The notes under the pieces are model-generated. The model saw only the letters and a list, made by a program, of their open reading frames with translations. It was not told the origin of the DNA and did not search any database. The position numbers and the translations under genes are program-made. Below are positions 801 to 42,920 of a stretch of DNA of 52,139 bases, piece by piece. Every line of letters starts with the position of its first letter. Position 1 is the stretch's first letter. The DNA is from Psammoneis japonica (lineage: Eukaryota): contig QPGO01000062.1 in assembly GCA_008632985.1 (NCBI GenBank), positions 372,001-424,139 of the forward strand, in the 5' to 3' direction.

Positions 801-801
801 A

Positions 802-3607: not shown

Positions 3608-3663
3608 ACGGGTTCCCACCAGTGAAAGCAAAGCAATGGGCTGATGTCCGGGGTGGAGCCAAT

Positions 3664-12240: not shown

Positions 12241-12635
12241 GACGCGTTCCAGCCCTAGGTGGGAGCTCGTAGCACTGACGTGTGACAACAATAATTTTTA
12301 TCATCCGTCGTATGTTTCGTACGTAGATTTCTACGTGTGATATTTAAAAAAATTGTCCAGACTCGCTGTTTTGCGAAGCCCAAGACGTTTTATATAACAA
12401 ATTTATAGAAACTATAATGCGCCAGTTACATTCTTCAATGTCTGAAGAATGTAACTGGCTAAGTAAAAAATGATGTACTCCAATCATGTGCGAGTTTGTG
12501 CGTTCGCAAAATTGCCTCATTTTCTGTTGGCGATCATTGACATTTTAATTACCGTATAATTTTACTACGGAGCTCGCACGTAGAAGTCTACGGGCCCAAT
12601 GTCACACGGATTCCCACCTGCGTCTGGAACGCGTC
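12241..12635 (-). mobile_element. 395-bp MITE copy 2 (TpA largely intact, young)
   Basis: TIR GACGCGTTCCAG at both ends. TSD GGGC (12237-12240 / 12636-12639). Inverted relative to copies 1 and 3. Confidence 0.95.
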
Positions 12636-13361: not shown

Positions 13362-14677
13362 GATGTGTTTTCATCCCAGGTGAGAAACGCGCGTGCGGAG
13401 GTGAGACGTTTCGTCTGTCCCTTTTCCGTCGACGTGCTTTTTGTGCGAGCAAATCTGACTGGACTTTCCCCCGATTTTTCGTTTCTTCTTTCCACAGACA
13501 TGTTCATTTTGAAAAGCCAGCCGTCACTCTCATTGGTTGAAGGGTGTGCACAAGAAAAGCGCTGTCTCGAAAGCGGCATTTTTTGGAGTGAAACTGACAG
13601 CCATCTGCTCGTTGTTGTCATTCTGGTGCATTTGAGAGACCATTCTGCTGTTTCTTTCACCAAATCTGACTGCTTTGAAAGAATGTGTGCATTGTTCATT
13701 GCACAAAGAGCTCACACCAAAAAAGAACGGCGTTCTAACTCTGTCATTTGCATGAGAAAAATCGGGGGAACTGACTTCGCACGTGATTTTTTTGCACGAT
13801 CGGCCACTTCAAAGATCGACTGATTTGTCGACCTGTGTGGGACACTTGAGTGAATAAAACAATGGGATTGAAATGGCAGTGTCAAAGTTCAATGTGTGTC
13901 CAGTTGTCATGTGATTTGACATGCCCAAGTGGAGTTAAAGATGAAATGTTGACAAAATTTCACCGCTCAAAATGACCAGTTCTATCTTAGAATAAAATGA
14001 AATGGCTGCAACACTGAGATGTGCCAATGGCATTGTTCTACTTTACAACAATGAAACTGTCACACTTGCATCTGAGATTCTTCATCCTCACACACCCTCA
14101 AAACCGAACACACAACGATTCTCTTGTCGGCGGCGAAATCTGATGTTGTCGCGCGACCCAAAAGCATCATCCACAACGACTCAAAGTGCGGACGACACAT
14201 CACAAGAATCACAGCAACGTGTCATAGAAACATTCTTCGTTGTCAGCATCCGGTGTCAAGTGGATGGAGCAGCGCGTTGATGAGAATCCCACTTCGCAAG
14301 CTGAGGAAGAGAGAAAGAGGCATCAAAAATGTCATGAGTCAAAAGGCCACCCACAAGGCACAACAAAAAACAAAGATCAAATTTTCAACCACATCATCGC
14401 ATTGAGCGTTGTCTTGTTGACCTGTCTCGGCATTCTTGCCTTCTCAGTCACAACATCCGTTGGTGCAAGAATGGACGAGTTCATGGCGACGGCATGGCGC
14501 CATTTTCGGTTTGCGCGAATTGTGGTTTGTGGTTCGAGACATGGAAAAACACATTTTTGCTGTCATGGAGCTCGTTTTTTACTGAGATTTTTGGTGCCAA
14601 ATGCACGTCTCATGTAGAAACACGTAGAAAACCTCGTGATGTGTCCAAAAGTTTCTCACCTGGGATGAAAACACATC
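13362..14677 (-). mobile_element. ~1.3-kb non-autonomous TIR DNA transposon, copy 2 (inverted)
   Basis: Reverse complement of 10433-11749 with the same TIRs. Flanks ATGC/ATGG match at 3 of 4 positions. Confidence 0.88.
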
Positions 14678-14699
14678 ATGGCGCGCATGTGATGGTTGT

Positions 14700-17600
14700 C
14701 TTTTTCCCATCCATGTGTGTTGTTTGCTTGCCTGGACGGAGTCTTTCTCCATCATGTTTCTGTTTGTCTGTTCATCTGCGTTCAAATTTAAACAGATCCT
14801 TTCTCCAATTCAAAAATTTTCATCTTTAATTTCTGAACATGTGCGTGCCATGATGTCCAATTGTCTCTTTGTGGCCAACTCTCTAACAGTTGTTGCCACC
14901 ATGCCAAGCAACTCCCATTCAAAAATCAACCGGGTCTGCACCCAATGATTTGGTTCTCAATCCGAAACCTGTGCACCAACAAATGGTTGTGAACAAGCAC
15001 CCAATTGTTTCATCCTGCTTCTGCCGCCTTCCTTGTCTCCAATCAGACTCTTAGCTTGGCATGCCCATTTGCCACTGTCGCTGCCAATGCCCGCAAAATG
15101 CAGCCCATCCCAGTGTGTCTGCCACAACTCAATTGAGCCAGCTGTCGCAAATCACCGTTTTCATTTTCCAAGAACAGCAAATTGCTTGTCAGTTGTCTGT
15201 TTCTGCATCTGAGAATGACAAAGCACCAAGTTGCAGCACAGACTTTAATGGAGATGATGACCCACCCAGTTTCTCACCTGCGGATGACCCGGAGCCCATG
15301 CCTCCCCCGATGAAGAAGTCAAGAAGGAGGAGCAGGAGGAGGGCTGTGATGACAAAGAGCTTGATGATGATTCCTCTCATTGCGAGATGTTCCCTGGCCA
15401 TCTTGCTGTGTCCGTCTCCTCTCCTCCGGATGAGACATCTGAAGAATCAACCAACAACTTGGATCCCTTGAATGGTGAGGCACACCTGATTCACCAACCT
15501 TTTCACTGGCCAAGGAAGCTTCACTTGAGCTGATCATGCTGTGCAACAATTCCAGTGCAACACGTCAATTTTACAGTCAGTTGCTCACCCTGTTGCAATG
15601 ATTTTGCAAGAAGCGGAAATTCAATTGTTTCCAGTGTTTTGGGCGGGAATTTTTGGTGAAGAAACTCTGCAAGAAGGTTTTCCTGCCCCAGCCCGACACT
15701 CGCATCATTGGTGGACGGGGAGTCACTCACTTCCACATGCGGGACATGTTGAGAGATTTGTTTGACGTGCACAATCTCAGCATGAACAAGTCCCTGCTGT
15801 GGGCATGTTTCCACAAGTTTGTTCCTGTCAATGATTGTGATCTCAGCAAGATCATGGGAGAGGCTTTGTTGCCACGCTTGACAGTGGCAAGGATGTCAGC
15901 GGCCATGGCAGGACAAAGGTTTGCAAGGAGACAAAAAAGCTGAGTGCAAGAAGGCAAAACCAAGGTTTTGTGGGAGGAAGTGAGTTTTTCAGATGAGGAT
16001 TTCGACGTAGAATCATGTTGAAATCCTGCCGGAAAGTCGTGACAAGTCAGCAAGCTCCGCTTCACATGACCAGAGTCATGCAAGAGTGGGCCTGCAAGAC
16101 CAAGTGGCAGACAGAGCAGTGTCAAATTTTGGTGAACAGAAAGAAAATGGAGGGATTTCTGATCCCTGCCCCAAGAGTTTGAAAATCGGGAGAGTTGTGG
16201 TCACAATTTTTTGGGCGGGAGGACATGGAATGCGTGGGTGGTGTGCCAGTTGCAGATTGGGAGAGAACACTTGTGGAATCTCCCAGACAAGGGGGTTGAC
16301 AATGAAGACATGCACAAAGTTGGATGAAAAACGTGTGTTTGCACTTCCGTGAAATTGCAAAAGGGAGGTCACATCTTGACCAAGTGCAGAGACATAAATT
16401 TGTTTCATGTCAGAACATGCAACAGAAGTGATTCATGTGCAGCCATTGCAATGGTCAGAATGTGTCATTCTTCATGAATGTCATTGAATGGACGTGAGAT
16501 CTGGTGGCCGCAATGGCGGACGAAGAAAGGAGAGAGAAAGAAACACGGCAAAAAAGCCAGTTTTGGAACAACTTGACAGAGCAAGGTGATGAACTTAAGC
16601 AGCATCAGGCTGTTTGGATGGCGTGCTTGCATTCTGACATTCAGATCAGAAGAGGCGAGGTTGATTGGAGTGCAACCAAGATCAGTGTGATCAAAAAGCA
16701 TGCTTGTGGCAGCGGAAGAATTTTCCTGGCTTGCCAAAGCCAAAGTTGTTAGACTGTTCAGACAGCACACTCAAGTTCTGATGTGCAGAACAGACAAACG
16801 AGGTGGATCGTGTGTGAATCCAGATCAGCTTAGAGCTGGCTTGCTGAGGGCATCCAGATCCAGAGTGATCAGAGAGGGCATTTGCGGCAGCAGGACATGT
16901 TCCAAGCTTGCCAAAAACAAAGACACCCTCAAGCTGCTCAGATGGCATGCTCACGTTCTGACACTCAGATCAGACAAAACGAGGAGGATTGCACTGCAAT
17001 CCGATCAAGTGGCTTGCGGAGGCTGTCTGGATCCAGCATGATCAAGAGGCGTTTGCGGCGATCGGGAACATTCCGATCTGCCAAAACAAAACACCGAACT
17101 GCATTGTTCGCACTCTGATGGAATGAGTCAGAAGTGGCAAGAGCAACGCAGGCATCATGCACAATCGACTTGGCTTGTGGAATCTCTCCGGATCCGAGTC
17201 GACGGCTGACTCATCGTGGCATTGCAGGCTGATCATTGATGACCAAGCCCATCCGCTGTTCGTTGGTGCCACATGTGCAGCTTGTGGGCGATTGTGCAAG
17301 GCATGCCATTCGGCAGAAGCAATGTTTTCAGTGTTGTCGGCCCACATCGGGTCGACGCAACCGACCCCATCATCACCGGCAGTCCGCCAAATGCAATGAG
17401 GGGAACTGGGGCCGGCGGCCTCTCGTCTCGTCCATCGTCTGTCTGTCTCCCACTGCGTGCTGCTGTCACGCGGTGACTCCACCAAGAGCACGACCGCCCA
17501 CAAGGTGTCCTCTCCTTGTGCTGGGCCTGCCGTCTTGGCTCTGACAAAAATCGCCCTTTTCAATTGATGATTTCTCAACCATCATCCGATGAATGACCGC

Positions 17601-18200
17601 CGGAGTTGCTGCAAACAATTGTGTTGGTGCACGAGAATTGAGGGCAAACGCTCTGGAATCTGGAGTTGGGAATTTTTTGGCCTGAAAAAATCGAACCCAA
17701 AAAGTTCGAACTTTTGTCACCAACTTCCTCTCCAGTGTTTTTGGACATTTTTGATGACTTTGAAATGGGGGAACACTTGAGGGTCGTGCATTGGAGTTTT
17801 TGACACCCGGACCCATTTCAGTGCACGCCTTCATGTGTCTGTAGAATGCACTGAAATGTCAAAGGTCCAAATCAAATCGTGTTTGGCGTCTCAAAAACGT
17901 TCCCCCATTTCGGTTCCTCACCAATCAAAGAAATGAGGCGCAACATTCATTGTTCAACAAATGAACATGTTTCAATGATCACACCCAAAACTTGCACCTC
18001 ATCTTCCGAACAAACCGTCAGTGCTTGCCCCCCATTCTCCCCCCCCCATGGAACAAGCAGACTCTCAGCTTTCCATCGATGCATCACATGTGGGGCTGTT
18101 GTTCGTACAAAATTTCAAGTCATCATTGACATTCAACACAACAGCTGGCAGCTAGAAGTGGCAACAGGAATCATTCGAAAATGTCGCATGAGTCACAATT
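14700..18200. other. TpA-depleted relic with broken plus-strand coding-like segments; probable decayed TE
   Basis: Near-absence of TpA. An acidic stretch and fragmented ORFs lie at about 15200-17120. No motif recognised. Confidence 0.35.
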
Positions 18201-21270: not shown

Positions 21271-21312
21271 AACAAGAGCAAGTTGGGTGCCAATGCCATT
21301 CTCGGAGTTTCG
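21271..21312 (+). pseudogene. 14-codon enolase fragment
   Basis: Translates as NKSKLGANAILGVS, a highly conserved enolase motif. The flanks are not enolase-like. Confidence 0.65.
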
Positions 21313-21753
21313 AGAAGCTTGTCTCCCCACTTATCCCAGATGAGCTCCAGCTTCAAGGTGGGACTCACAGTGGGGAACAGCAACATTTTGCATTTTTTGT
21401 TTCTCAGCGCAAAAATTCATGTGCATTTCCACATGACTTTTGACTCATTTTGCACCAGGTTTCAGTGCAGTTGTTGGGCCATGACTTGCTGAACAACTTG
21501 ACACTCTGGCATGTGCTGCAGCTCCTGCGCCCTCCAACATCTGTGGCTGAGTGCAACAACACACACAAATTTTCCACAATTTTGAGTGTGAAGAGGTGCA
21601 ACAGCACTGCAAAGTGGTCATTGTTTTGATGTCAAAGACAGGTGTGTCTGGTGTGTGACAGCCACAGCGCTTGTGAGGAGTGGAGCTCCATGGTGCAGGG
21701 ACAAATGAGGCCTAGAAATCCCTGCACCTGGAGCTTGGGCACCTCTCCACCAA

Positions 21754-21986
21754 GCTGCAGAAGGCAGCAGCAATGGACAAATGGAGCCACTTGTTGTGTG
21801 CAATGCAGCCCCTTCCTCCTTGCACTGTGGTTTCTGGCATGACCCTCTCCTGGGGCAAACTGGCAGCCCCTGGCTGCAGAAGGCAGTGGCAATGGACAAA
21901 TGGAGCCACTTGTTGTGTGCAATGCAGCCCCCTTTCTCCTTGCACCATGGTTTCTGGAATGACCGTCTCCTGGCAAACCAGCAGCT
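21754..21986. repeat. Two-unit tandem repeat with a period of about 119 bp
   Basis: gctgcagaaggcag..gcaatggacaaatggagccacttgttgtgtgcaatgcagcccc starts at 21754 and 21873. Several unit differences are TG versus CA swaps. Confidence 0.85.
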
Positions 21987-23127
21987 CCTTGTCAAGCCAG
22001 CAGTGCACCCTTTCAGCAGAGGCCAAGTTTGCACACAAATTCCAAATTTTTCAATGCTCAAAAAGAAACTGTCATTGTCAACAAAATGCACCATGCCAGA
22101 TCCATCACAACAACACTCTGATTGAAGCGGGGTTGCACACAAATCTTTGAGCAACACCTTTTTTGTGAAGGGTCAGGAATTGTGGTGCAAAAGAGCAGGG
22201 GAGAGTGTGGACAGACAGAAAGGCAGAAGTTTCAGGAGGCTGAGTCAGGAAGGATGATTGGCAGGTGGCAAGGTGAGCAGAAAAGGTGAGACCAAAGTTG
22301 AGGCGCAAGAGTTGGGTGGCCCAAGATTGAGGGGCAGAGGTGTGGCAGGAAAAAGAGCCAAAACAGTCAGGAGAGAGGTGGTGTCACCAGGTGACATTGG
22401 CTTGGGTGAGAAGATTCATTGGAGAGAGGAGGGAAAATTGGTGGGCTGCAAAGAAGGCATCAGAGTTCAAAAAGTTGGTGAGGTGATTCCAGGGGGGCTT
22501 GGGAGCAGGTGGTGGGACAGAGGAGGAGGAGTCATGAGAATGGCTGCAGAGAAAGACTTGGAAGTGGTGGTCCATGCTGCCAAGGTGGTCAAGGGCAAAA
22601 GGGAGAAGAAGAGAATGCCACATTGGATTGGGGAGTGGCCCAGATGACTCGAACGAATGTTTCAAAACTCGGAGATTTGCCGCAAGGCAGAAATCCAAAG
22701 GTGAGTGGCACAGAACGAAGCTCCCGATCGTTTGCGTTGTCGTCGACATCACCGTTTTTGTCCACACCGTCGCAAAACACATGAACACGAGGAGTGACCT
22801 ATTTATTTATCCTTACTCGATTACTGTTAAAAAATAATTAAAATAGCAACCGTTATCGTATCTATTCGTACTTTCTAAATTGAAATAGTAATTGTTAATA
22901 ATCGGTACATATAAAAGGTCAACTTAAGAATCGATATTTGAATTTCAACTGAGAAGGTATCTACCGTACGGTAGGTAGACTACCGGTAAGTATCGCTTGC
23001 TCACATTTTTCTGCGAACAATCCAAGATCGCACCATCCTGCATTCACTGAAAAGGTAAGGTATCGCTCACAATTCTGCGAAAAATCGAGATCGCAACAAC
23101 AACATCCTCCAACATCCGCTATGTACA

Positions 23128-24694: not shown

Positions 24695-24696
<2 letters not shown>

Positions 24697-24889
24697 CTGT
24701 GCTCAGCATCCTTTAGAAAGTTCATCTGCAACAGCTGGCTTGTCCTTTTGCAAGACCTTTTTCATGCAGGTCTGAAAGCACATCTGACCAGGCCTGTCAG
24801 GCAGTTGCTGCATGCAGTTTGAAAATGTCTGTCTCTAGAATGGCTGCTGCATTCAGAGGGTGCACTTGCACCTGCTGCCACAATGACAT

Positions 24890-24970
24890 TCAATGCAACT
24901 GAGAACAACAGGGCAGCTTCTTGACATGATGCTTCCTTGCTTTCAAATCTCCTTGCTCTTGTTGTTGCAG
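24890..24970 (-). pseudogene. Hypermutated 3' remnant of the 37981-38430 gene
   Basis: QQQEQGDLKARKHHVKKLPCCSQLH* versus the intact RRQERGDAKTKKRHVKKLPCNSQLY*. Confidence 0.85.
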
Positions 24971-27029
24971 CCATTTTGTGTGTGAATTTTTTTGCACCAA
25001 AGTGGCTTGGTTCTTTGTTTTGCCATGCGGATCCTTCTTTTCCCTGTCTTCTTGTTGCATGACATTGAAACATCCACCTTGCTTTGGGGCGCATCTTGTT
25101 GCAGAAAATGGGATCCCTCCATCCATCCATGTGCTCGTTTGCACATGGAAACTGCACACATGTCAGTTCTGCCAACACCAACAGGGTGGAGACATTTTTT
25201 CTTTCTTGTTCTTGGTGTGACTTGATGTGTTGATGCTGCACACACAAGTCTTGTTGTGTTGCTTTTTTCAATGAAAGAAACACAAAAAAAAGAGAAAGGC
25301 TTGGTGGTTTTTGCTGCTGCAGACCTGATGACCTTAACAAGCTTTGCTCAATGTGACCATCTGTTGCACAAAACAGGCCAAGTTGTTGTTGGGGAACAAT
25401 GCCACACATGCATTGTTGCTGCTTTGCTTGAGAGTGCTGCAGCACCAGCTGCAATGGGTTGCTTGCTGCATGTCCCAAAAAGCCAACAGTTTTTAGAATT
25501 GATGCAACAGGAGAAAAATGTGCTGTGACTTTGTTGGCAGAGCAAAACACAATGCTTGGTTGCCCACTCAGTTTGACAAATTGTGCCACACAGCAGTGCA
25601 TGCCACAAATGCTTTTGGACAAGAATGTGGTGGTGACACACATTGTGCATGTTGAACAATGGGAGCAAAACCCAGTCTGAGCTCCAAACAAGAAGTCAAA
25701 AAGAATCTGGTGCTGCCACCAGAAGAAAGAGTCATCCTGCAGACTGCAGAACAAGCAGCAACAGAGAAATGAGTCTCAAGCAGAGCATGCAGGGTGTCAG
25801 TTTGACTTTTTCAATGCTGGAGTTGAAGAACAACAAAGGTGACAGGGACAACAAACAGTGCGGCACACTTCAGCAGAAAGCAAAACAGACAAGTGCCACA
25901 CCATCAGTTTGTAGCTGGATGTCAACAAATGTGCTGCAGCACAGTCGAGAGGTTTGTTGCCAAGTGACTTGAGTCAAAGCTTCTTGTTGACACATCACAA
26001 AGTTGCTCTGAATCTTCTGTCCTCCTCAGCACTGTGCATTTTCAGAATGGGAGGAGAAAATCCATTTTGACTTTGTTTTGGCAGAGCAAAACCTCATGTG
26101 ATGCTCTTGTGCCACCTCAGTTTCACTTGTTGTGCAACCGCTGTTGGCTGAGAACATTGTGGGTTGATCAGCGGGAACAAACCCCAACCCAGAGTGCCAA
26201 AAAAAAGAATCTGGTGCAAACAAGCAGCAGCAGAGTGCTAAAAAAAGGGTCAAGCCCAGAGAGTGCACCATGTCAGTTGTTTGACTTTTCCCACACCAGA
26301 GCTGTTGATTGAACAGTGTTTGGCAGCAGTGCTGTCAATTGAGTGGCAAATGGCAGGGGGACAACAACAGTGCTGTTTGCTTGGCACAGAGCAAAACAGA
26401 ACACAAGTGGCTGCTGCCATTGGCCTGGTTGCCTTGGACACCACAACTCTCTTGCTCTGCACTCTTTTCTCTGTGTTGATGTCAGTGGACCCTGTCAAAG
26501 CAACAATGCAAAGAGCCTCAAAATGCATGCACAGGGCTTGCAACAAGAACATCCAACAGCAACATTGTGAAGAATTTTGTCCAGCAGCTCAAGTTGCAAG
26601 TTCTCATCCATTGCTCAGACTCCTCTGTCCAAGCTGTTCTCATTGTCCAAACTGTTGTCATTGGATGAACCACAGTTTGATTTTTGATGAGATTTGGTTC
26701 TTAACACCCTCAACACACAAGCAGCAAAGCTGCAAAGTTCTGGAGCTGCCTTTGATGTTGATGATGCAGCAACGCTGGGTGGCCAATCTTGAAGCAAGCA
26801 ATTGGTGCCATCTGTCTTGTGGTGGAAGCAAATGGCTCAAATTGGTGTTGCTGTGAAGCATCAACATGTGCCATTTCCCAACTCAAGCTTTGTTCACACA
26901 GGCACAACATGCAGCCAAAGCAGCTTGAGGAGTTTCAAGCTCATGCACTGGCCTTTGTCCACAGGCAGATGCAGCCATGCTCCTCTTCACATTCTTTGTC
27001 AATCAAGTTTGCTTGAATGGGGGGCTGAT

Positions 27030-27720
27030 GTGTGGCTGTGCTGCGGGGTGTTGAGGTTGTTTTGTGCGCACTTTGTGAGTGCTGTGGGCACACCAGGGCT
27101 GCCCAAGGCAGCCAGCAGCACATTTGTTGAGCTTGGAAATGACCTGTTTTTGCAAAATGCTGGGATGGAGTGAGGAAAGACTCCAGCTGACCCTGCCAAC
27201 ATGCCACCACACACAGGCTTGCAAAAGCAGCAACAAAGAGAAGCACTGTGCTGATGACAAGCTTGCGCCATCAGTGCAAAAGACAAGCCTCCTGGAGGGG
27301 CTGCTGCAATTGCTTGTTTTGGTTGCTTTTTTGGGTGGCTCTTTTGGTTTCATTGTGCTGCTTCTGGCTTGTGCACATCCATTTTCCATGACACCCTTCA
27401 ACCCAACAAACTCACTGTTGGGCTCCATTTTTTAATGACCTGTGGTGCCTGGCAGTTTTCTAGATTGTGGAGAGCATCCATGATTTGCAGTTGCCACAAA
27501 GCTCACCTCTCTGAGTGTGGCTTGAAGTTTCAAGCTTGCAAGCTCACTTGGATTTGTGGCTGCATGTGATTTGTGCCACATTGCAAAAAATAAAAGGCCA
27601 CAAGACCTGTGCAAAACAAATTTCCACATCAACTTTGGAGCCCCCCCCCAAGGCAATGCTTGCGTGGCCAAGGGAGAAATTTGAGGATGCACAGCTGTGG
27701 ACTTAAAATGAAGCAAATGC
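27030..27720. repeat. Old degenerate dispersed repeat (copy 2 of about 150-800)
   Basis: Same collinear blocks as 150-800, in the same orientation. Confidence 0.7.
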
Positions 27721-28105
27721 AACACCAATGGAGCAACCATGACCAAAACTCACTCACAAAACCAGTGCTTGAGCAACGCACCCAGTCAAGGCACTCAGAG
27801 CTCAAAGTTGGATTGTCCGCCGTGTCAGGCAGCTTCCATGACATCTGCTTGTGACTCACTCTGACACCCCCCTGTCATTGGCAAGCCAACTCAGATGCCA
27901 GATGCGTGCGGCAATTGTTGCAGACATTGTCACCACTCTTGCAGGTTGCTCTTGCATCCCCCTGCACTCCCACTCATGGTTGTTTTTTGCTTTTTTCTTC
28001 AGTGGCAGATGCAGGGAGTCTGGGTCACACTGCGCCAGTTCTGGCATCTTCTCTCTGGCCCCTGCCCTCTGCTGTGCTGGCAACAACAAACCTGAGAGGA
28101 AAGAC

Positions 28106-28301
28106 TGACAGAATGCCAAAGGTCAACAGTGACAGAGGCATGAAAGACTCCCTGAAGCACCAGGACTGTGATGACACGAGTGCCAGTAGATGAGAAAGTG
28201 AGAAGCAGATCTCAGAGAGATCTGCTCGTCTGTCTAAATGGTCTGGCCATCATCCGCATCCAGTCTGTCCATCGTACGACATGCAGACAGACAGGCTGAC
28301 A
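28106..28301 (-). repeat. 3' LTR of Copia B (196 bp)
   Basis: TG...CA termini. Direct repeat of 35015-35212. Confidence 0.95.
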
Positions 28302-31300
28302 CCCTCCCCTGATCTGCAATGTCTCAACATAGAGAATGGGGCAGATCAAACCAAAGAACAGGGATGATGTAAGGAAACAGAGAGACCAGACACAGGACAC
28401 GACAAGTGTCCATGCCCAATGCGCCATCAAACAAGGGGGCAATGTGCAGCAGGGAGGCCACCGCGGAAAAAACATCAACAGCAGCGTCCCATCATGCGTC
28501 GAGCGTGGCGGGCATGTGGCACCCAGCCAAGGGCCTTGGCAAGGTCATTGCCAGGGTTGACAATGCCAGGGACATGTCTTGTGACAATCTTGCCCACTTC
28601 CTTCCATTTTTGGATCGCAAAAAACTGGACCTCAACGTGACGGGATCGCTCGGTCGGGATCAAATGATTGACGATCTTGATTGCCGATTCGTTGTCAATG
28701 TGCAATGGGGTTGGCTCCGTCTGAGAGAAGCCTGGTTCATGTGGGATGTGACGAAGGTAAAGGACATGCTTGGCAGTGGTGCCAGCAGCGCAGAATTCAG
28801 CTTCCGCAGAACTCGCAGCAGTCGCCGATTGGGTCTTGCATCAAAAGGATGTGGCAGCACCGGCTAACATGCAAGCACAGCCAGTCACAGAGCGACGGTT
28901 ACGGAGGTCATTGCCACATGCAGCATCCAAAAAGGCAACAAGTTGATGATCATGTTCTGGGAAAGGGAACGATGGTAGGGTCGGGTCCGGAGTGAGACGT
29001 TCGAAGGGGCAGGCGGGCAGTCTTGAGTCTCGGGTGGGCTTCTTGCAGTTCAGTTCCCAATGCTTGGTGCGTCAAAGGCACTTGCATGCTCCCTTGAGTG
29101 CATCACAGTGAACCAAAGCAGGACAGGCAGAGAACTTGGAGAGAGCAGTGATGGCATGTCCAACATCCAATCGACAGACAACATGCGCACACAACAATTC
29201 ACCAAGTGGAGTGCGGCACCCAAAACCAGCAGCTTGTTGTAACTCTGCATGTTCCGGGGTTCCTTCAGCTGGACCAACAGCAGTGCACAGTTCACGAAAA
29301 GAGTCAACCGGGATTGGCGCAGCCTTGCAGTCATCGTCGAGTTCCTCTTCCGTCGGTGTCGACCATCCATGCGAGGTGCAAACCCGATCAACATGGCTGT
29401 GAACAGCAATGCCAACAGAGTCATCATGTTGATGAACATCCACACCATTGAACTCTTCAATCACGCCAAGACACTTGAAAGGCAGGGAGGTTTCCGATTC
29501 CAATTCAAGAGCTTTGCCAATCTTGTCGTGTGTCTTGATCGCAAGGGACTCTTCAGGACACGCAAGGGAGAAGTCATCAACCTGATGGAGGAGCAAGATC
29601 TTGTGTCCCTCAAAAGCAGCAGAACAGATGCATTTGTCATGAGCGGTGTTGCGAAAAAGTGGATTCACATCGGACAAAATGCCGTTGATGTGCATCTCCC
29701 AGAGCACGCTGGCTTCTGGGTGTCCCTGAAGTGCATGTTGCATCGGAAGCACCATGGTCCCATCCAAATCAATGCCAAACCGAGCCTTGTGCCAAGTCGC
29801 GCATGCTTCGTCAACAGCAACACAGACGGGGTGTGACGGTCGTGGAGAGTGTGCACAGGCATCATGAGCATCACCACCAAACACAGGGTAGCTCACAGTC
29901 GCAGCAAGGGCAAAAAACATGCGTTGGACAGGTTGTTCCACACAAGAGGAGTGGGTTGAGTGAAGACAATGGAGGATTGACGCAGCACAAGGAGATCCAT
30001 CGCAGCATTGTCAAGATCGTCGCGTGCCATCATGCTTGAGATCATGTTGCCAATGTGGACAAAGGACTGTGGCATCCTTTGGACATTCAATCGGTGCACC
30101 AAACATCCCCAACTCATGGAATTGGTCAAGTTGTTTGAATTCACCCACATGCCATTCGGGCCAGGTGCCCAGCTTCTTGAGACAATGGCGAGTGAAAGCA
30201 CCTGACGCTTGTTCCTCCGGAGCAATGGCATGAGATGAAATGGTGCAGATGTTGACCACACCATTGTCGCAGTCGACATGGATCAACGGAGGGATGTCAT
30301 CATCGTCCACATCGGAAAAATCAACATCAGGGTGACGGATGGCAGCAACAGCATGCATGTCAGCATTGGCAATTTCCGGGACATGTTCGTCATCAGGGTC
30401 AGGAGTCGGTGCACAGACATTGTGTTCCATCAGGGCACGTTGTAGAGCCTGGGAGTCCAGTTGACGTTCCGGCGCAAACTCGATTTCAAAGTGAGTCTTG
30501 CCAGAATCACAGACTTGTCGAAAACGTTTGATGGCCTCCTCTGCCACAAAGACAGGGTGATCATCAATCAATGCGACACACGCACCCTTGATCTTGTTGC
30601 AGGTTGCCTTCAAAGAACAGAAAAGACGCGCAGCAGGAGAACCATGCTTGACATCAGAGACAAACACTTGCTGATGGAGATCATCCGCAGTCAATGAAAT
30701 TCCAAATGTCGGATCAGCAAACGGCCCCTTCATCGTATGCGCAATGGTCTTGGCAAAAGGATTCCCATGAAAGTGGAGCTCGTCCATCGTAGATTCTTCA
30801 GTCTTGGCAGGTGAAGCCTTGCCATCTTGAGCATGCTCCAAGTGAACCACATTCGGGGGAAGAGAGTCGTGGGGTAGATCATTCATGCCCTCATCATGAT
30901 GAATGTGCTTGGCAAGCTTGACACGCGACGTCTCGGTGTCACACCAAAGGATGTTCTTGGTGGTGTCTGGAAGATGGCCCAAGAAAACACCCTTGCAAGA
31001 GACAGACCGAAATTTTGCTGGGCGGTGATTCGACGCACGCACCCACACTTGGCAACCAAACATGCGAAAGTTCTTGAAATCATCCTTTCGACCAGCTCAG
31101 CAAGAGCAATCGGAGCAGCAGGTTGTCCGCGGGATGGCACAGCGTTGTTGATTCGAGTGAAATGATGAAAAGCACAGGGCCAGAATTTTGTGGGCAAATT
31201 GGCACCAATGAGCATCGCCCGGATGGCATCAGCAACAGTCAAATGACTGCGTTCCACTGGGCCACTCTGGTTTGAAGCATCTTTTCCCGCAGGACAAATT

Positions 31301-33514
31301 GCGCGGTGAAAGTCATCCTCGAAAAGTCACCGAACCTCTGGGTTTTGATGCAATTCACCTCCTTGATCCACAAACACACATTTGTCTGGACATTTTGGTG
31401 AGTGCTCTTCCAGAAAGTGGCGAAGCCAATTCAGAGGGGTTGCCTTGGACGGTGGAGATGCTTCGTTTTATGATCGTAGATGGTGATCCAACAAGTCTCG
31501 CCATTCAATCCAACACAGTCTTTGGTGCGCTCCGAGTTCTTGGACCGCAGGCCAGAGAAAGAAAAATCAACCGCAAGACCTTGGCAGGGTTGGGTGGCAG
31601 CAAGAGCAGTGTTCGGACCAGCAGGTTCCTTTGTCTGCTTTGCTTGTGTGCATGTGGGACAAGTGTCGAGAGGAGAAGTTCCGTGGGCAAACTTGGGGAC
31701 ACCGTGTTCATGGGCATGACAAAGGCAGTGATCACTCGGATGACCAAGTCGCTGATGCCATGAAAGGCATTCCGTGTCAGCCTTGAGAGATTGGACAGGG
31801 ACATTCTTCTCTGCATGCTCTTCAAAAGGAACATCTTGATGCACTCGGGGGATCAACTTGCATTCAGCACGAAGAGCGTCATGTTGGCAGGTGTGACATG
31901 TTTCAATCATGTGCACAGAGACTGCTTCACACTCATCAGCAAAGGAAGGGTCACTGGTCTTGAGGCGCTCAACAGATGCACCCAATTCATCGTTAGATTC
32001 TGGGAGGATGAGAGGGTGAGCAAAGCATTTGCCATTGATCAATTTCCCATGAATGATGATGTCCTGATTCTTGTGCAATCGGTGTCGTGCAACAAACTTG
32101 CAGGTGCCGAGATCATGGAACTTGAGGACACAATCAACATTGTGGTCTGCACGACGAGGGCCATTTTGACGAAGGAGGAGTCGCTCATCAACCAACGTAG
32201 ATTGGATCTGTGGGTGGCAGCAGGCACGAACCTCAACACATCCATCAGAGTTCTCTGCAGGGATGCGAAGACATCCGAACCCAACTGGGACAGCTTGATG
32301 GCCAAGGGCCGGATTGACAGCAAGGGGACAGGGATGGGACGGAGTGAATTCTTGGTGTCGGTGGAGAAGGTCACGGTCGCCTGCACATGCAACATCAGCA
32401 CCAGCATCCAACTGAGCACAACACTCATTCGGAGCAAAATTTGCCCCATTGACAGAACAAGTTGAGCGCAACAGTTCCGGCTCAGGAGAGTGACTCGCTT
32501 GGTGTGGATCGATCGGAGTGACACGAACAGAATTGATGGCAGCAAAACCATCTTCAACAGCCATGTCATTGCAGGTGAGGTCAATGTGTTCCTCAAAATC
32601 CGGTGTTTCTGGGTCTTCCCTCCCCTGTTCCAAAGGATCCGGAGCACAAGCAGCATCGACGGTGTCTTCCATGGGAGCAGGGTCATCATCTGGTAACTTG
32701 CTGGCATCAAATGACACCTTCGTGGCAGTGGAAGGGGTGGCATCCATGTCAATCTGTGAAGAAAGAGGCACTTCAGTGGCAGATGACGAGACGGTTGGTC
32801 CCTCTTTCAAGGTCATCCCGCTGACATCAGTCTTGTCTCGGTGAGGAGAAAAACGGGCAGTGTCGGAGATCCGAAACTAGCTGCGACGGCCCGATTGAAA
32901 ATCCGAGGGCGGAGCACCAGATCTGGGCGGATTTTCAGGGTTTTCATGATGAGGTGGGAGCAGACCTTGGGATCCTTGGAACTCAGAAGCACGCACAGCT
33001 GCTTCCCTCTTTAAGAATTGACAAAAATGGATGTGAAATCCCTTGATGTGTGGGTTGTTCTTCAGGGCCGGACAGTCATCAAACAAATGCTCTCCGGAGC
33101 AGACAAGACATGGTTTCTTGGAGGCTTCATTCGGAGCAACTTTCAGTTTGCAAACTGAAGCCAAACATGCATGGTGCAGAAGTCGATCTTCGTCCGTAGA
33201 AGGGATCTCGAGTTCATGCAATTCGTCACAAAAAGCATCAAAGGTGTCCAGAGGTGGAGATTCCGCACCAGTGTCTTCAGTGGTGGAGTCATCGACTGGT
33301 TCAGGAAGAGATGTCTCAGGGATCTGGAGAGCACTGACATTGACAGCCGTGCGTCGCGCATCCTCAGCTGCTTGATTCCATGTGCGGCGGGGATTGGATT
33401 GCGTCGCACGAGTGGCAAAGGATGGACTGTCCGGTTGGCAGAGGAAATCAGAGAGAGTCTCGACAATCTGTGCATCTGTGCACTTCTTCTGCACAGCTGG
33501 AGACTTCCGTTCAT

Positions 33515-33909
33515 GACGCGTTCCAGACGTAGGTGGGAATCCGTGTGACATTGGGCCCGCAGACTTCTACGTGCGAGCTCCGTAGTAAAATTATACGGTA
33601 ATTAAAATGTCAATGATCGCCAACAGAAAATGAGGCAATTTTGCGAACGCACAAACTCGCACATGATTGAAGTACATCATTTTTTACTTAGCCAGTTACA
33701 TTCTTCAGACATTGAAGAATGTAACTGGCGCATTATTGTTTCTATAAATTTGTTATATAAAACGTCTGGGGCTTCGCAAAACAGCGAGTCTGGACAATTT
33801 TTTTTAAATATCACACGTAGAAATCTACGTACGAAACATACGACGGATGATAAAATTATTGTTGTCACACGTCAGTGCTACGAGCTCCCACCTAGGGCTG
33901 GAACGCGTC
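33515..33909 (+). mobile_element. 395-bp MITE copy 3 (TpA largely intact, young), inserted in Copia B gag
   Basis: TIRs GACGCGTTCCAG...CTGGAACGCGTC. TSD TCAT (33511-33514 / 33910-33913). Confidence 0.95.
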
Positions 33910-35002
33910 TCATCTCTGGTGGCACGAGATGAGAACTTGGAGTGCTTGGTGTTCTTGACAAAGACAGTCATCTCCCGTGGATCGTTCAACGTAGAGTCCG
34001 CATCAAAAATGCAGGCATGCAGCTGTGGGAAATCATTGAAGATCATGTGGCAGTCTGTCAATGATCGATTGCCTTGGACAGGATGGGAGTCAACCAGTCC
34101 AGCAGCATCGTGGTCGAAAGCAGGATGATTCTCACAGACAATCTGCTTGAGAGCCTTGTGTCCATTGCCGCAGCATGATGCAACAATCCGATGACATTTG
34201 CTGTTCTTGGGGAACACACCCGACTTGGATGAGATTTTGTGGAGAGAGCTCTGAGCTTCCTTGCAGTGGACGCACATGCATTGAGGCAAGTCATCATCCT
34301 TGCCGTTTCCGATCTCGAAACCTTTCACACCACCGTGGTCCTCAGCAAAACACCACAATGGATGCATGTGGCATCCTGAATCAAAGGCATGACGTTGGAA
34401 ATTTTGGCACCATGCTCGCATCCCAGGGGGAGAGTCGTCGTGACATGCAGGAGGTTCCCTGAACAACATTTTCTGGTCAGGAGTCAAGCTCATGATGAAA
34501 AGGGTGCCATCGTTGAGGATGATGCAATTGGATGCATCAACACAGTGACGGAATCCATGGTTGCAAGGGACGAGGGAGCTCTGAAGAGCAACTTTTCCGT
34601 TCGTGGATGAAGTGATCACGAAGCATGTCCGCAAAATCTTTCTTGGGTTGCACGCGCTCTGGATCGTCAAAGAACGGGTCGAGATCAGTTGTGGAGTCCG
34701 CACAAATCGCACCCAGGCAGCCATGTAGATGTGGCATCGTTGTGTGTGCCTCGAACTCACAGCAGATCTCTGCAATGGACGGAAGAGTGGGCTTTGTGGG
34801 GTCGGAAGACACCATGGTTTTAGTTGGTGGAGCCATTTTTGGTCATGCACGCGCAGAAATCTGGTGTGTTTCTACGGTCATGAAAAATGCCGGGAAAGCG
34901 AGACAAAAAGTTGTCAGATCAGACGATGAGGCTCGCTCGATCGGCTCACAAAAGAAATGAATCGAAACAGAAAGCTTGGCGCACAGGTCTGTGGCACAGC
35001 AC

Positions 35003-35014
35003 GCGGCCATGACC
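35003..35014 (-). other. Probable primer-binding site of Copia B
   Basis: GGTCATGGCCGC directly follows the 5' LTR. It resembles the GGTTATGG-type PBS of copia elements primed by an internal tRNA-iMet fragment, with TA->CA. Confidence 0.55.
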
Positions 35015-35212
35015 TGACAGAATGCCGAAGGTCAATGGTGACAGAGGCATGAAAGACTCCCTGAAGTGCCAGGACTGTGATGACACGAGCACCAGCAGAT
35101 GAGAAAGTGAGAAGCAGATCTCAGAGAGATCTGCTCTCGTCTGTCTGAATGGTCCAGCCATCATCCACATCCAGTCTGTCCATCATGCGACATGCAGACA
35201 GACAGGCTGACA
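35015..35212 (-). repeat. 5' LTR of Copia B (198 bp)
   Basis: Direct repeat of 28106-28301 with a 2-bp indel. Followed by TSD AAGAC. Confidence 0.95.
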
Positions 35213-36298
35213 AAGACAAGAAGAAAGAGAAGAGGGAAAAGAGGGGGGGGGGGGGGATTTTTGGCCACTGCAGATGCTGCCTTTTGCTGCACTGCTGGAA
35301 GGTTCCAACACACACACACACAGAAGCTCTGTGGCACATGAGGAGCAAGTCACCCACGATGTCGTCAAAGGATTCACCCTGTCAGTGGGTTGGGGGGGGG
35401 GACCAGAGTGCATCACAAACTGGAAGGAAAGTGTTTTTTGCAGGATGCCGCAGCACACACGGCAGCAGTGGTGGCCGTTGATGAGCCCTCCTTCCCCCCC
35501 ACGACCAACGCTTCCCACAACCAGGAGCAGCCTGCCCGCCCCCCCCTCCCCCCATGATCTTTTGCTCCATGTGACTCTGTGAGGCCACCAGCACAATTGT
35601 CCCTTGCAAGACTGACCAAGCCAAAAGGGCAGGGCCTCAAGTTGTCAAAGGATTTTGACCACAGAGAGTGGGCTGAGTCAGATGAAGGAATGATGATGAG
35701 CACTTCAAACAACAAGGCAAGAATTTTTGGTGGCATTTTGTGCAGCACTGCAAGGTGTGGTGCACACCACCATCCAAAAAGATTTTGTTGGTTGTGATGC
35801 ACTTCTTGGATGACACAACTGCCCACACACACAACACTTTGGAAGTGTGCTCCTGTTGTGGTGGTGGTGGTGTGTGTGCTCTTGCTGCTGTCTCCTGCTC
35901 TGCGCCACTTTTTTCTCACCCCACAAACCTGAGAGAGGATTTCCCAACATGAACTCACACGTATGCACCACTTTCTCACTGCATGTGGTTTCCAAGTGCA
36001 TGAGCTTACCAACTGAGAAGGAAGAAGGAGGGATGCCCCCGCCTCCATCCCTCGTCGTTTACTGCAACCATCCTCGCTCTAAAGTGGTGCGAGGATCAAT
36101 GGTCATGACTGTATGATTATCAACCGTTAATATAATTATTAATTCTTTATTAAATTGAAATAGAAATTGCTAATATACGGTACATATAAAATGTGTACTT
36201 AACAACGATATTTTGAATTTCAACTGAAAAGGTATCGCTTGCTCACATTTTTCTGCGAACAATCCAGATCGCAACATCACATGCAACATTCCGCTACA

Positions 36299-38889: not shown

Positions 38890-41800
38890 TAGCTGTCATT
38901 GTGTGGTGGTTTCTCAAAAAAGAGGCATGCCCAACAAAAAGCTTGTTTGTGCTCTTGCACATGTGCAACGCAACTCTTTTCAATGAGGCTTGCCTCTGTC
39001 TTCACATTTCAGGCTGTGCTTCTAACAAAATGACAAGGGTCTCAACATGTGGTGTGTCGTGCACTCATTTTTGCAGGCTTTGTGTTTTGTGTCATTGTTG
39101 CTTGCATGCAGCAGCAGCAGCAGCAGCAGAGGTTGTGTGTTGTGTTGACCACAAGCACTGGCATGTCAGTTGAAAAAGGGGTCAAGGGATTTTGTCATTA
39201 GGTGCTCAGTTTTGTCAAATCAGAAAACTTTTTCTGTGATTTGAGATGTGTTCATTGTGGAAAAAGAGCAAGCAAAACAGCTTTTCTTTTGTCACAATCA
39301 CAAACTGCAATGGAGCCATGTCAAAGCAAAGGCCATTCAGTGATGTTGCAGCAGTTTGGAAACAGTTGTGCTGCAGCATGTCATGACATCATTTTTGAAG
39401 TTGTGACATCACAGCCAGTGCAGCCTTTCAACAGCATGGTTGCAGCTGTTGCACCACATTGCATCACATTTTCTCATTCAACAGGAGCACATTTCTTGCA
39501 ACTCATCACGTGCATTTCCCTGTCAAACATTGTCCCTTCTTCACACCATGTGAAGTTGTTGATGTCATTTTTTTTAAAACTTCATGACCCTCCATCTCAA
39601 AAACAAGACAACAGCTTCTCCCCTTTTCCCTCTCCCACCAATGACTCCTTTCATTGCACAACATGACAAAGTGACACAAAAATGTGTGGAGCATTTTTGA
39701 GACACAACCACACTTTTGTGCATTTGTGCAGCATGTCTTGAGCTCTTTCAATGCAAGTGACCCTCCAACTCACTGTCCTGATTTTCTCTCTCACACCTTT
39801 CACACTGACCCAATCACACACACCAGCCTGTTTTCCCTCTCAGTGTGACACAACATCCAAGCAATGTGTCAAATGTGTGTGACATGTTTCAAAAATCATG
39901 ACCCGCCATTTGTGTGCCAAGAGTTCAGCCAGCTCATCAAGTGGGCAGCCCCATCACACATGCCAGGCAGTGACAGCAGTTTTTGCAAAAACCACTGTTT
40001 CTTCAAAAAAAAAAAAACCTCTCAACAACTCCTTGCAGCCACTCAACAAGACAGGGATGAGACAGCACTGGTCTGCCAGCCGGCAGCAGTCACCAAGGGA
40101 GAAAAGGAAGCTGCTGAAGCTCATTTCAAGCAGTTCTCAAGCAGAACCTGATGATTGTGCCTTTTTTGTCATGACATGTCTTGTTTGTCATGATGCTCTT
40201 GGATGCTCTTGGCTTCAGCACTCTTGTCATGAAAAAGGCAGAGACTTGCAACTTCATGCCCTGACAGTGCACACAGCTGCTGTGCAAGCACAGTGCAGCT
40301 GTGATGACAGCTGTTTGCATCACTCAACACACTTGCTCATTCAGAAAATGCATTGCCTCGAAGGAATCAAAAATCTTTCTCCTCCCAATGGTGGCTGGCA
40401 ATGGGCTGTGTTGCCAAGTTTTTGTGGACTTTGTCATGTGTGCACTCATGATCTCCAACAACCCAATGCACAGTGTGCCAGTGACTCCATTGTGCAAAAA
40501 GAGATAAAATGGCAAGAAACACCACAGCACAACTCACTGCAATTGAAGAGTGACAATGTCTGACCCGAGCTTTGTCACACCCATCAATGGAGTGGCATGA
40601 AAGGGGTCAGCCATGCACTTGTGCAAGACTTGTCCTCAATGCATCAAAAACAAGCCACTGTTTGAGCCAGCAGTGGAGCACAAAGAAATTAAGAATGAAA
40701 CCTCAGAAATGAGATGACAAATTGTTGCTTGTGGATGAAGGAAATGCCAATGCCAGCATTCTTTGATGAAGATTTAAACCCATTGGCAAGCAACACAAGC
40801 AGTGACAACCCTGTCAGGCTGGCCAACACCAACGTGCTGAAGGGCTTCTGTGCCCAAAGAGTGTGCTGCAAGGCAAGAAGAGGGGCAAAGAGTGGGCACA
40901 GCACTGCCACAGTTGGTTGCAAGTGGCTGATGCTGGTGGGTGGAAAGAGCTGGACAAGCTTGAGAAACACGTGCAATGCCTGCGGCAGCCCAACAAAAAA
41001 TGTGTCCAAGGCAAGGGTGTGCATCGTGCAGAATGGCTGCATGGATTTGCTTCTCCTGCTGCCACAGAGAATTGTTTGCACAGGTCTGACAACCACTGTG
41101 AGAACAGAGTTGCTGGGCTTGTGTCATGTGACTCTTGTTGCACTCCATGAGCAGAACAAAAGCAGTGCAGCAAAGTTAAAGTGGCTGGTGCGGTTTGTTC
41201 AAATCTGTGACCAGGAATGCCACAAAATTTGCTGGATGCATGCTCCATGTGAAATCAACTTGAAAATTCTCTGTCACCATGCTCTGCACCTCCTGCACTG
41301 GCTCATGCTAAGTTCACATTTTTTGGAGCCTCAAACCTCTTGGCGCTCATGTTGCAGACTCAGATTTAAGGCTGATGGGAGAAATTGCATGTTGTGAACA
41401 TTTCTCTGTTTGTGTTGCAGCCTGGAAGGCTGCTCCCACCCACTTTTGCAAGTGGCAACAGCATTGCTCATCATGTGCCACAATGAGGTGACTTGCAATC
41501 TTGAATCTTGGCCCTGCCTTCAATGCTGTCAGTGGCAAGATGGGCACGCCACTCCTGCACAGAAGGCAGGGGTTGTTGACAGCACTGCCTGTCCAGGTTT
41601 GAGCCTCAAAGCATTGTTGGAGATGTGGCCTCATGTTGTCTTGGAGAACTTTGCACGGCAAAACACTGAGGCAAAGCCAGCTGAGGCCAGCAGCCTTGCA
41701 TTTGTTGCTGCACTGTTGAGCACATTGTTGTCACCACAAACAACAGGTGTGCACCATCAAGAGGAGCCATGCTCAGATTCTTGCACTGCTTGCTCAAGTC

Positions 41801-42920
41801 ATGGCTTGTCCTCAGAGCAACGCACAAGCAACCATGTTTTGCCCATCAGCTGACCACCAACTTGCAACATGAAAATTGACATTTGTGCTTTGCAGCAACA
41901 ACCGCAGCATCTCACATTAAAAATGGCAATGTCTTGCACCCCAGAGGCATTGCTTTGCACTCAGACAACACAGCAGCTGAGCACACAAATGAGACAAAGA
42001 TGAAAACTGCACAAATGCATGCACCCATGGACAGGTCACTTGACAGGAGCTGTGGTTCAAGAAGAAGCAGGGGCTGCAAATGCCAGTGTGCTCGCACCTG
42101 AGTCTCAACCTCCAGTGGCCACAAAAGAAATTGTCAAGAACCAAGGGCACAAAAAGTGTTGTTGTCAGAGGTGCTCAGAAAGATTTGCCACAGAAGAGTG
42201 TCGGCAGCAGAGATGCCATGGAGCAAAGGGTCAAGCTGTCTGCCCTGACTTGGCAAGCAAATGGCACAACATTTCATGAGAGCAGATCTCTGGAGCTGGC
42301 AAAAAGGTGATGAGCAACCAGGAGTGCACACAGTTTGTGAGTGCAAGCAAAGCAACAGACTGGCATTTGCTGGATGCAGGAGCCTTGATGGACAACAAGT
42401 GTCTGGAGAAAATGCACGAATGGCAGGAGTGCATGTCAGAGCAGGCCAAGGATTGTGTTTAAAAAGTTCAAAAACAAAAAGCAGTGCAACAAACTCTCCA
42501 AGAAAAGGGCTCCAAAATCCCTGCTGCTGGGCCTGGCAAAAAGAGTGAAAAAATAAAACAAGAGCAAGCTCAAGGCATCCCTTGACCCAGCCAACTCAAC
42601 AACAGCTGCCAACGTTGTTTTGCAGCCCTCCCGCATCATGTCCAGCAGCTGGAGAGTGCGTTGTTGGCACACAGCAGCCATGGGTGGGGTGGGGAGGAAG
42701 CAGCAGCTGGGTCTTTTGACAACAGCATCAATGGTGTGTCATGCAAACAATGGCAATGGTGTGCACAGCAAGTCCAAGCCACCCTTTGCCGACAGCGTGT
42801 TTCTTTGTTCCAGTCGAGGTTTGAACCCGTGTGTGCCCGTGCCTCCAGTGCGAGTGTTGGCGTGCGTGCGCGAACCTCGAACCTCTCCGACGATCTCTTC
42901 ACATTTTTGCCGAAGCCAGC
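38890..42920. other. Old TpA- and CpG-depleted relic domain
   Basis: Very few TA or CG dinucleotides. TG/CA-rich. The ORFs are Cys/His-rich and unrecognisable. Confidence 0.6.

Follow-up and report, generated by a model that had tools for sequence, protein, structure and literature searches.

The two long terminal repeats (LTRs) of a single Ty1/copia insertion in the diatom Psammoneis japonica differ by transitions at pyrimidine-purine (YpR) dinucleotides, and these differences belong to an erasure of TpA that extends over whole domains and mirrors fungal repeat-induced point mutation (RIP). The insertion occupies positions 28,106 to 35,212 of the window, that is, of the whole stretch of 52,139 nucleotides analyzed here (assembly GCA_008632985.1, contig QPGO01000062.1, positions 372,001 to 424,139 of the forward strand); all coordinates below are those of the window. 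The initial annotation, made from the sequence alone, had described the LTR differences and missed the surrounding erasure. TpA is lost and CpA and TpG are gained, TA being the ancestral state; the loss is confined to blocks with sharp borders, and it took place after integration. We consider it probable that these changes reflect a targeted TpA hypermutation, which converts TA to CA or TG in place after insertion and would serve as a host defence via deamination of adenine.

Divergence of the two LTRs

The pentanucleotide AAGAC is found directly outside both LTR copies, and every item in the list of LTR differences given by the initial annotation has been found in the sequence. Altogether, alignment of the copies shows 14 substitutions and an indel of 2 bp (CT at 35134-35135). 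The substitutions are without exception transitions within YpR dinucleotides, to which only 49% of the LTR positions belong; when 14 positions were drawn at random in 200,000 simulated trials, the probability of all being in YpR was 3e-5. No differences are observed at the 100 positions lying outside YpR in both copies (95% upper bound 0.03). The differences are, as had been claimed, almost exclusively at TA- or CG-derived sites. Moreover, at four places CA in one copy is aligned with TG in the other, whereas the simulated mean for adjacent Y-R double hits is 0.23 and the probability of at least four is 1.5e-5, in line with the earlier suggestion that the TG/CA pairs are independent hits on opposite strands. 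By strand outcome these doubles split 2:2, interspersed and not in runs, and the ratio of four doubles to three single hits corresponds to a chance of about 0.84 that a TA is hit in a given copy.

Eleven of the 14 substitutions are assigned to the TpA process, namely, those at the three sites with TA left in one copy and at the four CA/TG doubles. The other three, at CG/CA sites, are attributed to ordinary CpG decay, the CpGs in question being probably methylated; three of the six CG sites in the LTR remain intact in both copies.

For polarization of the changes we used other copies of this copia family in contigs from a public DNA sequencing run (run X1; 5638 pieces, including 761 that are 99% or more alike); runs X2 and X3 gave almost no coverage of the family. 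All eight contigs of other family copies have A at LTR position 35147, and TA is retained at the corresponding position 28236; therefore, at 28236/35147 TA is ancestral and TG derived. The claim of mutation after integration at both TA and CG sites holds. The ancestor of the TG/CA pairs had been left as either TA or CG, and the evidence now favors mainly TA: about 0.4 of the four doubles would be expected from CpG decay, TA loss in the surrounding DNA is nearly saturated, and the direction seen at 28236/35147 is also seen in the transposon copies and tyrosine codons described below. Among the best 40 of 1195 variant places, a biased sample that favors sites where the other copies agree, changes private to the window copy include 11 of CG to TG or CA and four of TA to TG.

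The LTR pair gives a direct post-integration record of the TpA process. Its Kimura two-parameter distance is 0.077 with no changes at the 100 non-YpR positions, and hence dating by LTR divergence is invalid for this pair; the warning in the initial annotation that such dating would inflate the age was justified.

TpA loss in the window, in repeats and in related elements

When the window is segmented into two states by the number of TAs in each 100 bp, six depleted blocks are obtained, comprising 34.1 of 52.1 kb, with the observed-to-expected ratio (o/e) of TpA of 0.02-0.09, and six normal segments (18 kb, genes and young transposons) with o/e of 0.56-0.87, the genes themselves having 0.56-0.65. 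In 1-kb bins the values likewise form two classes, 0.02-0.18 and 0.4-0.8, and the step between adjacent blocks is sharp and ten-fold. Among the 16 dinucleotides compared, only TA collapses, to 0.07 in depleted DNA as against 0.60 in normal DNA, with CA and TG rising to 1.65 and 1.62 from 1.17 and 1.11; CG drops to 0.54 (0.16-0.73 in individual depleted blocks, 0.98 in normal DNA), and the others move little. The depleted blocks are transposon-rich or unannotated: three copia reverse transcriptase (RT) regions and several intra-window repeats lie in them, along with DNA that matches no known family. A Pfam search with frames of the unannotated blocks gave no match, and no viral genes were present among the open reading frames scanned in the window.

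The survival of TA-containing tetranucleotides relative to normal DNA is 0 for ATAT, 0.011 for GTAC, 0.056 for CTAG, and 0.25 for TTAA. These values fit an order of TA loss by the 3'-neighbor of TAY > TAG > TAA, judged from small counts in sequence classes that differ in kind. TAA and TAG occur 1.5 and 1.1 times per kb in depleted DNA, compared to 10.6 and 8.8 in normal DNA, and because these stop codons have been erased, long false frames arise on both strands. Stop-free frames of approximately 530-580 codons are observed on both strands of dead transposon DNA (1636-3381, 4022-5620 on both strands, 6702-8369, and others).

A family of 395-bp miniature inverted-repeat transposable elements (MITEs) provides copies of different age within the window. 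Its members end in inverted repeats of 12 bp (GACGCGTTCCAG) and are flanked by target duplications of four nucleotides (TCAT, GCCC, and ACGG), with TCAT at the copy nested in the copia element. Of 27 TAs common to both young MITEs, the old copy has TG at 12, CA at nine, TA at four, and other dinucleotides at two, so that 21 of the 23 changed sites became TG or CA. On the contrary, it keeps 23 of 26 CG, 26 of 27 CA, and 19 of 21 TG. Simple arithmetic on these site counts gives TA loss about 15 times faster than CG loss. Comparison of the copies indicates that TA is ancestral and CA/TG derived in this family. The depth of the MITE bins in run X1 is approximately 100,000, compared to 1,000-7,000 for the copia bins; hence, the MITE family is very abundant and probably recently active.

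The same polarity is seen in the protein. We aligned the RT of the element with 11 homologues (38-54% identity) and considered columns with Tyr in at least 70% of these homologues. In the 13 such columns the element has His six times (CAC/CAT), Cys six times (TGC/TGT), and Tyr once, while none of the control residues is lost (His 9/9, Phe 8/8, Glu 7/7, Trp 3/3). Strand outcomes are thus balanced, with 12 TG to nine CA in the MITE and six His to six Cys in RT, and interspersed in position.

We also considered 80 related copia loci from metagenomes, with RT 45-54% identical to that of the element; no closer protein copies that could polarize individual sites were found, the best match being 54% identical. 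The TpA o/e is at least 0.6 in 55 of these loci, 0.4-0.6 in 17, 0.2-0.4 in seven, and below 0.2 in one. As most related loci have ordinary TpA, this copia clade is not natively TA-poor. Scored against the Tyr positions of the reference P0058, the window copy has Tyr, His, and Cys in the proportion 1/9/8 of 23. Most related loci retain 12-18 Tyr, and intermediate states occur; the loci with low TpA show 3/11/6 (L077), 2/8/9 of 22 (L039), 1/6/13 of 23 (L037), and 2/6/12 (L054). The contigs of L053 and L054 each include an internal step from TA-poor DNA, with about 4-11 TAs per 500 bp, to TA-normal DNA, with about 16-32. Replacement of Tyr by His or Cys with partial loss of TpA is observed in microbial-mat and other metagenome copia loci L037, L038, L039, L053, L054, L076, and L077; several of the samples behind the TpA-poor loci may come from one campaign.

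The initial annotation had proposed that an ordinary transition spectrum in LTR pairs genome-wide would speak against its reading. Within the window we compared other repeats, and all four non-genic comparisons (three repeat pairs and the old against the young MITE) share the spectrum of the LTR pair. The segments 802-3213 and 9372-6546 differ by 116 transitions and eight transversions, including 19 CA/TG doubles and 55 CG/CA and CG/TG sites; for 10432-11749 and 14678-13362 the numbers are 81 and 14, with 25 doubles accounting for 50 of the 81 transitions; and 86-803 and 26963-27719 show 11 doubles. By comparison, the gene pair 23046-24969 and 36223-38060 has only two. The first of these pairs belongs to inverted copies of a second copia family with RVT_2 (802-3667 and 6491-9372, approximately 95% alike), the left copy being interrupted by the old MITE. 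The second is a 1.3-kb inverted repeat (10432-11749 and 13362-14678, 92.7% identity), which flanks the young MITE at 12241-12635 and has no family match in its frames.

A CG origin of the doubles can be evaluated from the counts of sites with CG in both copies and in one copy, which set the number of doubles expected. CpG decay predicts 0.4 of the four doubles in the LTR pair, 2.9 of 19 in the 802 pair, and 0.5 of 25 in the 10432 pair. In the two large repeat pairs 129 and 52 CGs, respectively, are intact in both copies, and since most CpGs survive, doubles derived from CG should be rare. If saturation is assumed, the ancestral TA density can be back-calculated as (2 x doubles + remaining TA)/length; the results, 0.056 in the LTR and 0.050 in the 10432 pair, are near the density of 0.043 in the undepleted part of the window.

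Structure of the element and of the surrounding DNA

The coordinates of the element, its parts, the LTR difference sites, the MITE copies, and the TpA-depleted blocks are collected in Table 1.

Table 1. Features of the copia element and of the TpA-depleted DNA around it (window coordinates)
Feature	Position	Strand	Remarks
Target-site duplication AAGAC, left	28101..28105		directly outside LTR; same as 35213-35217
3' LTR of copia element	28106..28301	-	196 bp; TG...CA ends; 3 TpA left
Polypurine tract	28302..28311	-	minus strand CAGGGGAGGG; directly upstream of 3' LTR
RNase H-like end of pol	28475..28840	-	by-eye likeness to C-terminal consensus of aligned homologues (KTQS.TATSSTEAEF...); no Pfam match
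Reverse transcriptase RVT_2, degenerate	29072..30010	-	Pfam E=1e-5, below gathering score
Integrase C-terminal SH3-like domain region	30011..31096	-	PF25597, E=2.4e-9
GAG-pre-integrase / integrase region	31431..32876	-	PF13976, E=7.7e-7
Gag-side open frame, pre-integrase region to MITE insertion	32877..33514	-	position only; no family match
Young 395-bp MITE nested in copia element	33515..33909	+	TA o/e 0.84; TpA-normal island in depleted block
Gag-side open frame upstream of MITE insertion	33910..34871	-	position only; no family match
5' LTR of copia element	35015..35212	-	198 bp; TG...CA ends; 0 TpA left
Target-site duplication AAGAC, right	35213..35217		directly outside LTR
LTR CA/TG doubles	28127-8, 28158-9, 28181-2, 28244-5
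LTR CG/CA sites	28118, 28256, 28274
LTR TA/CA site	28187
LTR TA/TG sites	28236, 28276
Young MITE copy, TpA-normal island	12241..12635	-	98% identical to 33515-33909
Old MITE copy in depleted DNA	3213-3607		TA-converted
TpA-depleted block	1..12200		o/e 0.09; contains an inverted pair of copies from another copia family, and old MITE copy 3213-3607
TpA-depleted block, unannotated	12601..18100		o/e 0.07; one arm of inverted repeat; no Pfam match
TpA-depleted block	21301..22800		o/e 0.02, CpG 0.23
TpA-depleted block holding the element	24701..36000 (24701-33500 and 33901-36000)		TA o/e 0.04-0.06, CA+TG ~1.7, CpG 0.44-0.48; broken only by young MITE
TpA-depleted block, CpG also lost	38901..42900		TA 0.04, CG 0.16, CA+TG 1.91; no Pfam match

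On the minus strand the Pfam matches follow the order gag_pre-integrs, SH3_retrovirus, RVT_2, with integrase upstream of RT, which is the Ty1/copia order. The TG...CA ends of the LTRs, the duplication of 5 bp of target DNA, and the presence of a polypurine tract are Ty1/copia traits as well. Since this tract abuts position 28301 on the minus strand, 35015-35212 is the 5' LTR; the same orientation follows from the domain order. No standard tRNA primer-binding site was recognized after the 5' LTR, where the sequence was inspected without comparison to tRNAs. The element, a Ty1/copia retrotransposon that lies on the minus strand, carries in-frame stops, frame changes, and the nested 395-bp MITE, and is therefore dead.

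Two regions have lost both TpA and CpG: at 25001-28000 and 38901-42900 the TpA o/e is 0.03-0.06 and the CpG o/e 0.05-0.16, and nearly all YpR are CA or TG (o/e 1.8-2.2). These may be the oldest relics, in which the slower CpG decay is also complete. Three N are present at positions 276-278.

The normal segments hold recognizable genes, including one encoding ankyrin repeats and a TIR domain, two beta-helix paralogues, a TSP3-repeat frame, Tic110, and a glycosyltransferase. The Tic110 frame (48092-49243) is closest to pennate diatoms, with 53-65% identity to its counterparts in Nitzschia, Pseudo-nitzschia, Cylindrotheca, Phaeodactylum, and Seminavis; for centric diatoms the identity is 44-48%. 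By these best hits the host is a diatom, probably a raphid pennate, while matches of the frame in the ESM Atlas scored below 0.9 and did not discriminate between taxa. A dinoflagellate host, considered in connection with 5-hydroxymethyluracil, was rejected, as a search for the spliced-leader motif gave 0 matches and Tic110 is of the pennate type. The ankyrin-TIR frame (18584-20344, 586 codons, intron-free, ankyrin repeats followed by the TIR domain) is TpA-normal and lies between two depleted blocks. The duplicated genes for right-handed beta-helix proteins (23046-24969 and 36223-38060, 83.5% alike) have normal TpA and flank the copia block. An 866-codon frame at 42557-45157 contains repeats of approximately 145 bp (43359-44558) at about 70% identity and matches thrombospondin type 3.

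Proposed process, alternative explanations and known systems

The proposed process would act on DNA and convert 5'-TA-3' to CA or TG. Either base pair of this palindromic dinucleotide would undergo the A:T to G:C transition, and neither strand would be much preferred. It would affect whole transposon-rich blocks to near saturation, genes and very recent insertions being spared. As to the chemistry, we infer that an enzyme targeted to silenced mobile DNA deaminates adenine at TA, the resulting inosine being read as G; a role in host defence is suggested by analogy with Bigelowiella natans (see below). Since the changes are limited to TA, it follows from the genetic code that they cannot turn a sense codon into a stop. 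If the process is real, elements would be killed without stop codons, through missense changes (Tyr to His/Cys) and other rewriting of TA-containing codons, and through removal of TA-rich promoter and processing signals.

Several observations weigh against this explanation. All evidence consists of fixed differences, with no enzyme, modified base, or new mutation observed. Several depleted blocks have no recognizable transposon, so that the term mobile DNA is not established for all of them. Of the ten LTR difference sites only one is polarized directly, among the best 40 of 1195 variant places. Among these same 40 of 1195 places, 16 of 20 private A-to-G or T-to-C changes are not at TpA, eight of them creating CpG from CA or TG and eight being others; biased as the sample is, this shows that subfamily differences or other processes are present as well. 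Further, a uniform-rate model of TA loss under-predicts the doubles, giving 0.6-0.7 in the two large repeat pairs, and therefore the surviving TAs must be resistant or new. We read this failure as rate heterogeneity among TAs, with the bulk of TAs lost at saturation, and not as evidence for CG. Finally, an abundant young MITE is almost untouched inside a depleted block, which requires either episodic activity of the process or a very recent insertion.

The same targeted hypermutation could proceed through the other base of the pair, if a modified thymine at TpA (5-hydroxymethyluracil or similar) mispaired with G and gave T to C. The signature is blind to this distinction, as TA to CA is TA to TG on the other strand. 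In dinoflagellate DNA 5-hydroxymethyluracil is found preferentially at TpA and TpC, which counts in favor of such a route. On the other side, we know of no report of modified thymine in diatoms, a statement made with no specific search for it. The 3'-neighbor effect (TAY > TAG > TAA), based on small counts, is neutral between the routes. We give the thymine route a small but appreciable weight. Decay of methylated CpG alone, with the doubles coming from CG hit on both strands and the TA sites being secondary, would explain the three CG/CA sites of the LTR and the lowered CpG in depleted blocks, and CpG methylation of Phaeodactylum transposons is reported in the part of the diatom DNA methyltransferase (DNMT) paper used here (PMC9998398). 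It is, however, unable to remove TpA or to turn Tyr codons into His and Cys; in the MITE three of 26 CG sites changed, compared to 23 of 27 TA sites, and the doubles predicted from CG fall far below those observed in all three pairs where they were calculated. On these comparisons CpG decay alone is largely refuted, being a minor component only, and as the sole cause it is very improbable.

The remaining alternatives fail on direction, timing, or distribution. A RIP-like change of C to T at CpA, with TA derived and CA/TG ancestral, would leave exactly TA/CA and TA/TG pairs, and diatom DNMT4 enzymes are related to fungal RID, according to the same part of the DNMT paper (PMC9998398). Such a process would enrich TpA, yet TpA is nearly absent from the affected blocks; functional relatives have Tyr where the element has His or Cys, and not the reverse, and TA is the family state at 35147. 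With TpA depleted about ten-fold and TAA and TAG becoming fewer, RIP is refuted by its direction, and its probability is negligible. A-to-I editing of transcripts by an ADAR-like enzyme before reverse transcription, inherited by new copies, would produce A-to-G changes with the preference for 5' U that is typical of ADAR, as noted in the discussion of the B. natans preprint (10.64898/2026.01.13.699255, in the portion used here). However, TA to TG and TA to CA are equally frequent here, and the changes extend to a DNA transposon (the MITE) and to unannotated flanking DNA. Moreover, it is established for retrotransposons that both LTRs are copied from one template, so that pre-integration changes cannot create differences between them. 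For the LTR differences RNA editing is thus refuted; it could still add to family-level divergence, and as a general explanation it has very little chance. One could also suppose no mutational process at all and ascribe the pattern to an intrinsically TA-poor composition or to selection against TA, given that TpA is scarce in most genomes and that the genes in the window have o/e of about 0.6. This is hardly credible in view of the ten-fold step between adjacent blocks, the loss of conserved catalytic Tyr in a dead element whose relatives are TpA-normal, and the divergence of two copies of one insertion at exactly TA-type sites.

If targeted TpA hypermutation is accepted, a hypermutation described in one species in 2026 is extended to diatoms, which are major primary producers, and to ordinary transposons, and the enzyme becomes findable by comparison of diatoms with and without the signature. 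In such genomes ages based on LTR divergence are meaningless, and long false reading frames in dead transposon DNA mislead gene callers and homology searches. Replacement of Tyr by His or Cys and CA/TG doubles would offer simple diagnostics for any assembly or metagenome. A broader proposal can be made only tentatively, as we think it somewhat less probable than its opposite: a diatom defence against transposons that relies on a DNA adenine deaminase or an activity equivalent to it, chemically mirrors RIP, is shared with Rhizaria, old within the Stramenopiles-Alveolata-Rhizaria group, and widespread in nature. If this is true, wide action would be suggested by the partly and fully converted copia elements in microbial-mat and marine metagenomes.

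TpA hypermutation of diatoms or of LTR retrotransposons was not described in any paper found by our literature search, which did not cover supplements. In mutation-accumulation lines of the diatom Phaeodactylum tricornutum the mutable contexts named in the part of the report used here are CG, CC, and TG, not TA (PMC6604790), and the consulted portion of the diatom DNMT paper mentions no RIP-like process (PMC9998398). The closest known case is the chlorarachniophyte B. natans, for which the following is taken from a portion of the preprint by Mettrop et al. (10.64898/2026.01.13.699255). In its mutation-accumulation lines 231 of 302 new nuclear mutations are in giant-virus and virophage regions, and 230 of these 231 are GC-biased, all at TpA and yielding TpG or CpA. 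The mutations arise in some of the lines only, at approximately 6e-7 per site and generation. TpA-poor coding sequences of B. natans are enriched for reverse transcriptase and DDE domains, and the authors propose an ADAT2-like DNA adenine deaminase.

The signature in the window matches this TpA-only hypermutation, which, as far as the sources used here go, has been described only in B. natans. In both cases there are A:T to G:C transitions only, at TpA only, leading to TpG or CpA depending on the strand, and the loss of TpA with gain of CpA and TpG is confined to blocks, the rest of the genome being ordinary; in both, the activity looks episodic. The differences concern the lineage (a diatom from Stramenopiles here, a member of Rhizaria there), the targets (LTR retrotransposons, a MITE, and unannotated repeat blocks as compared to giant-virus and virophage inserts), the depth (TpA o/e of 0.02-0.09 as compared to 0.45 in the B. 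natans viral region), and the kind of evidence, which is fixed differences in the LTR pair, repeat copies, and Tyr codons here and measured new mutations in B. natans, again by the portion of the preprint used.

The process in the window resembles ascomycete RIP in being DNA-level, dinucleotide-specific, and transition-only, in wrecking transposons in place, and in distorting LTR dating. The chemistry and the direction are opposite, however: in RIP, C is replaced by T, mostly at CpA, with TpA and stop codons as products, whereas here TpA is destroyed and stop codons cannot be formed. Also unlike in RIP, duplication alone is not a trigger here, as 1.9-kb gene duplicates and abundant MITEs that are 98% identical are spared. 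Methylated-CpG decay similarly leaves TG and CA on opposite strands, but is minor here (three of 14 LTR differences, CpG o/e 0.54). Finally, APOBEC and ADAR in animals are likewise examples of deaminase-driven hypermutation of mobile elements with a neighbor-base preference; they act on cDNA or RNA prior to integration and on one strand, whereas in the window the changes are post-integration, occur on both strands, and involve a DNA transposon as well.

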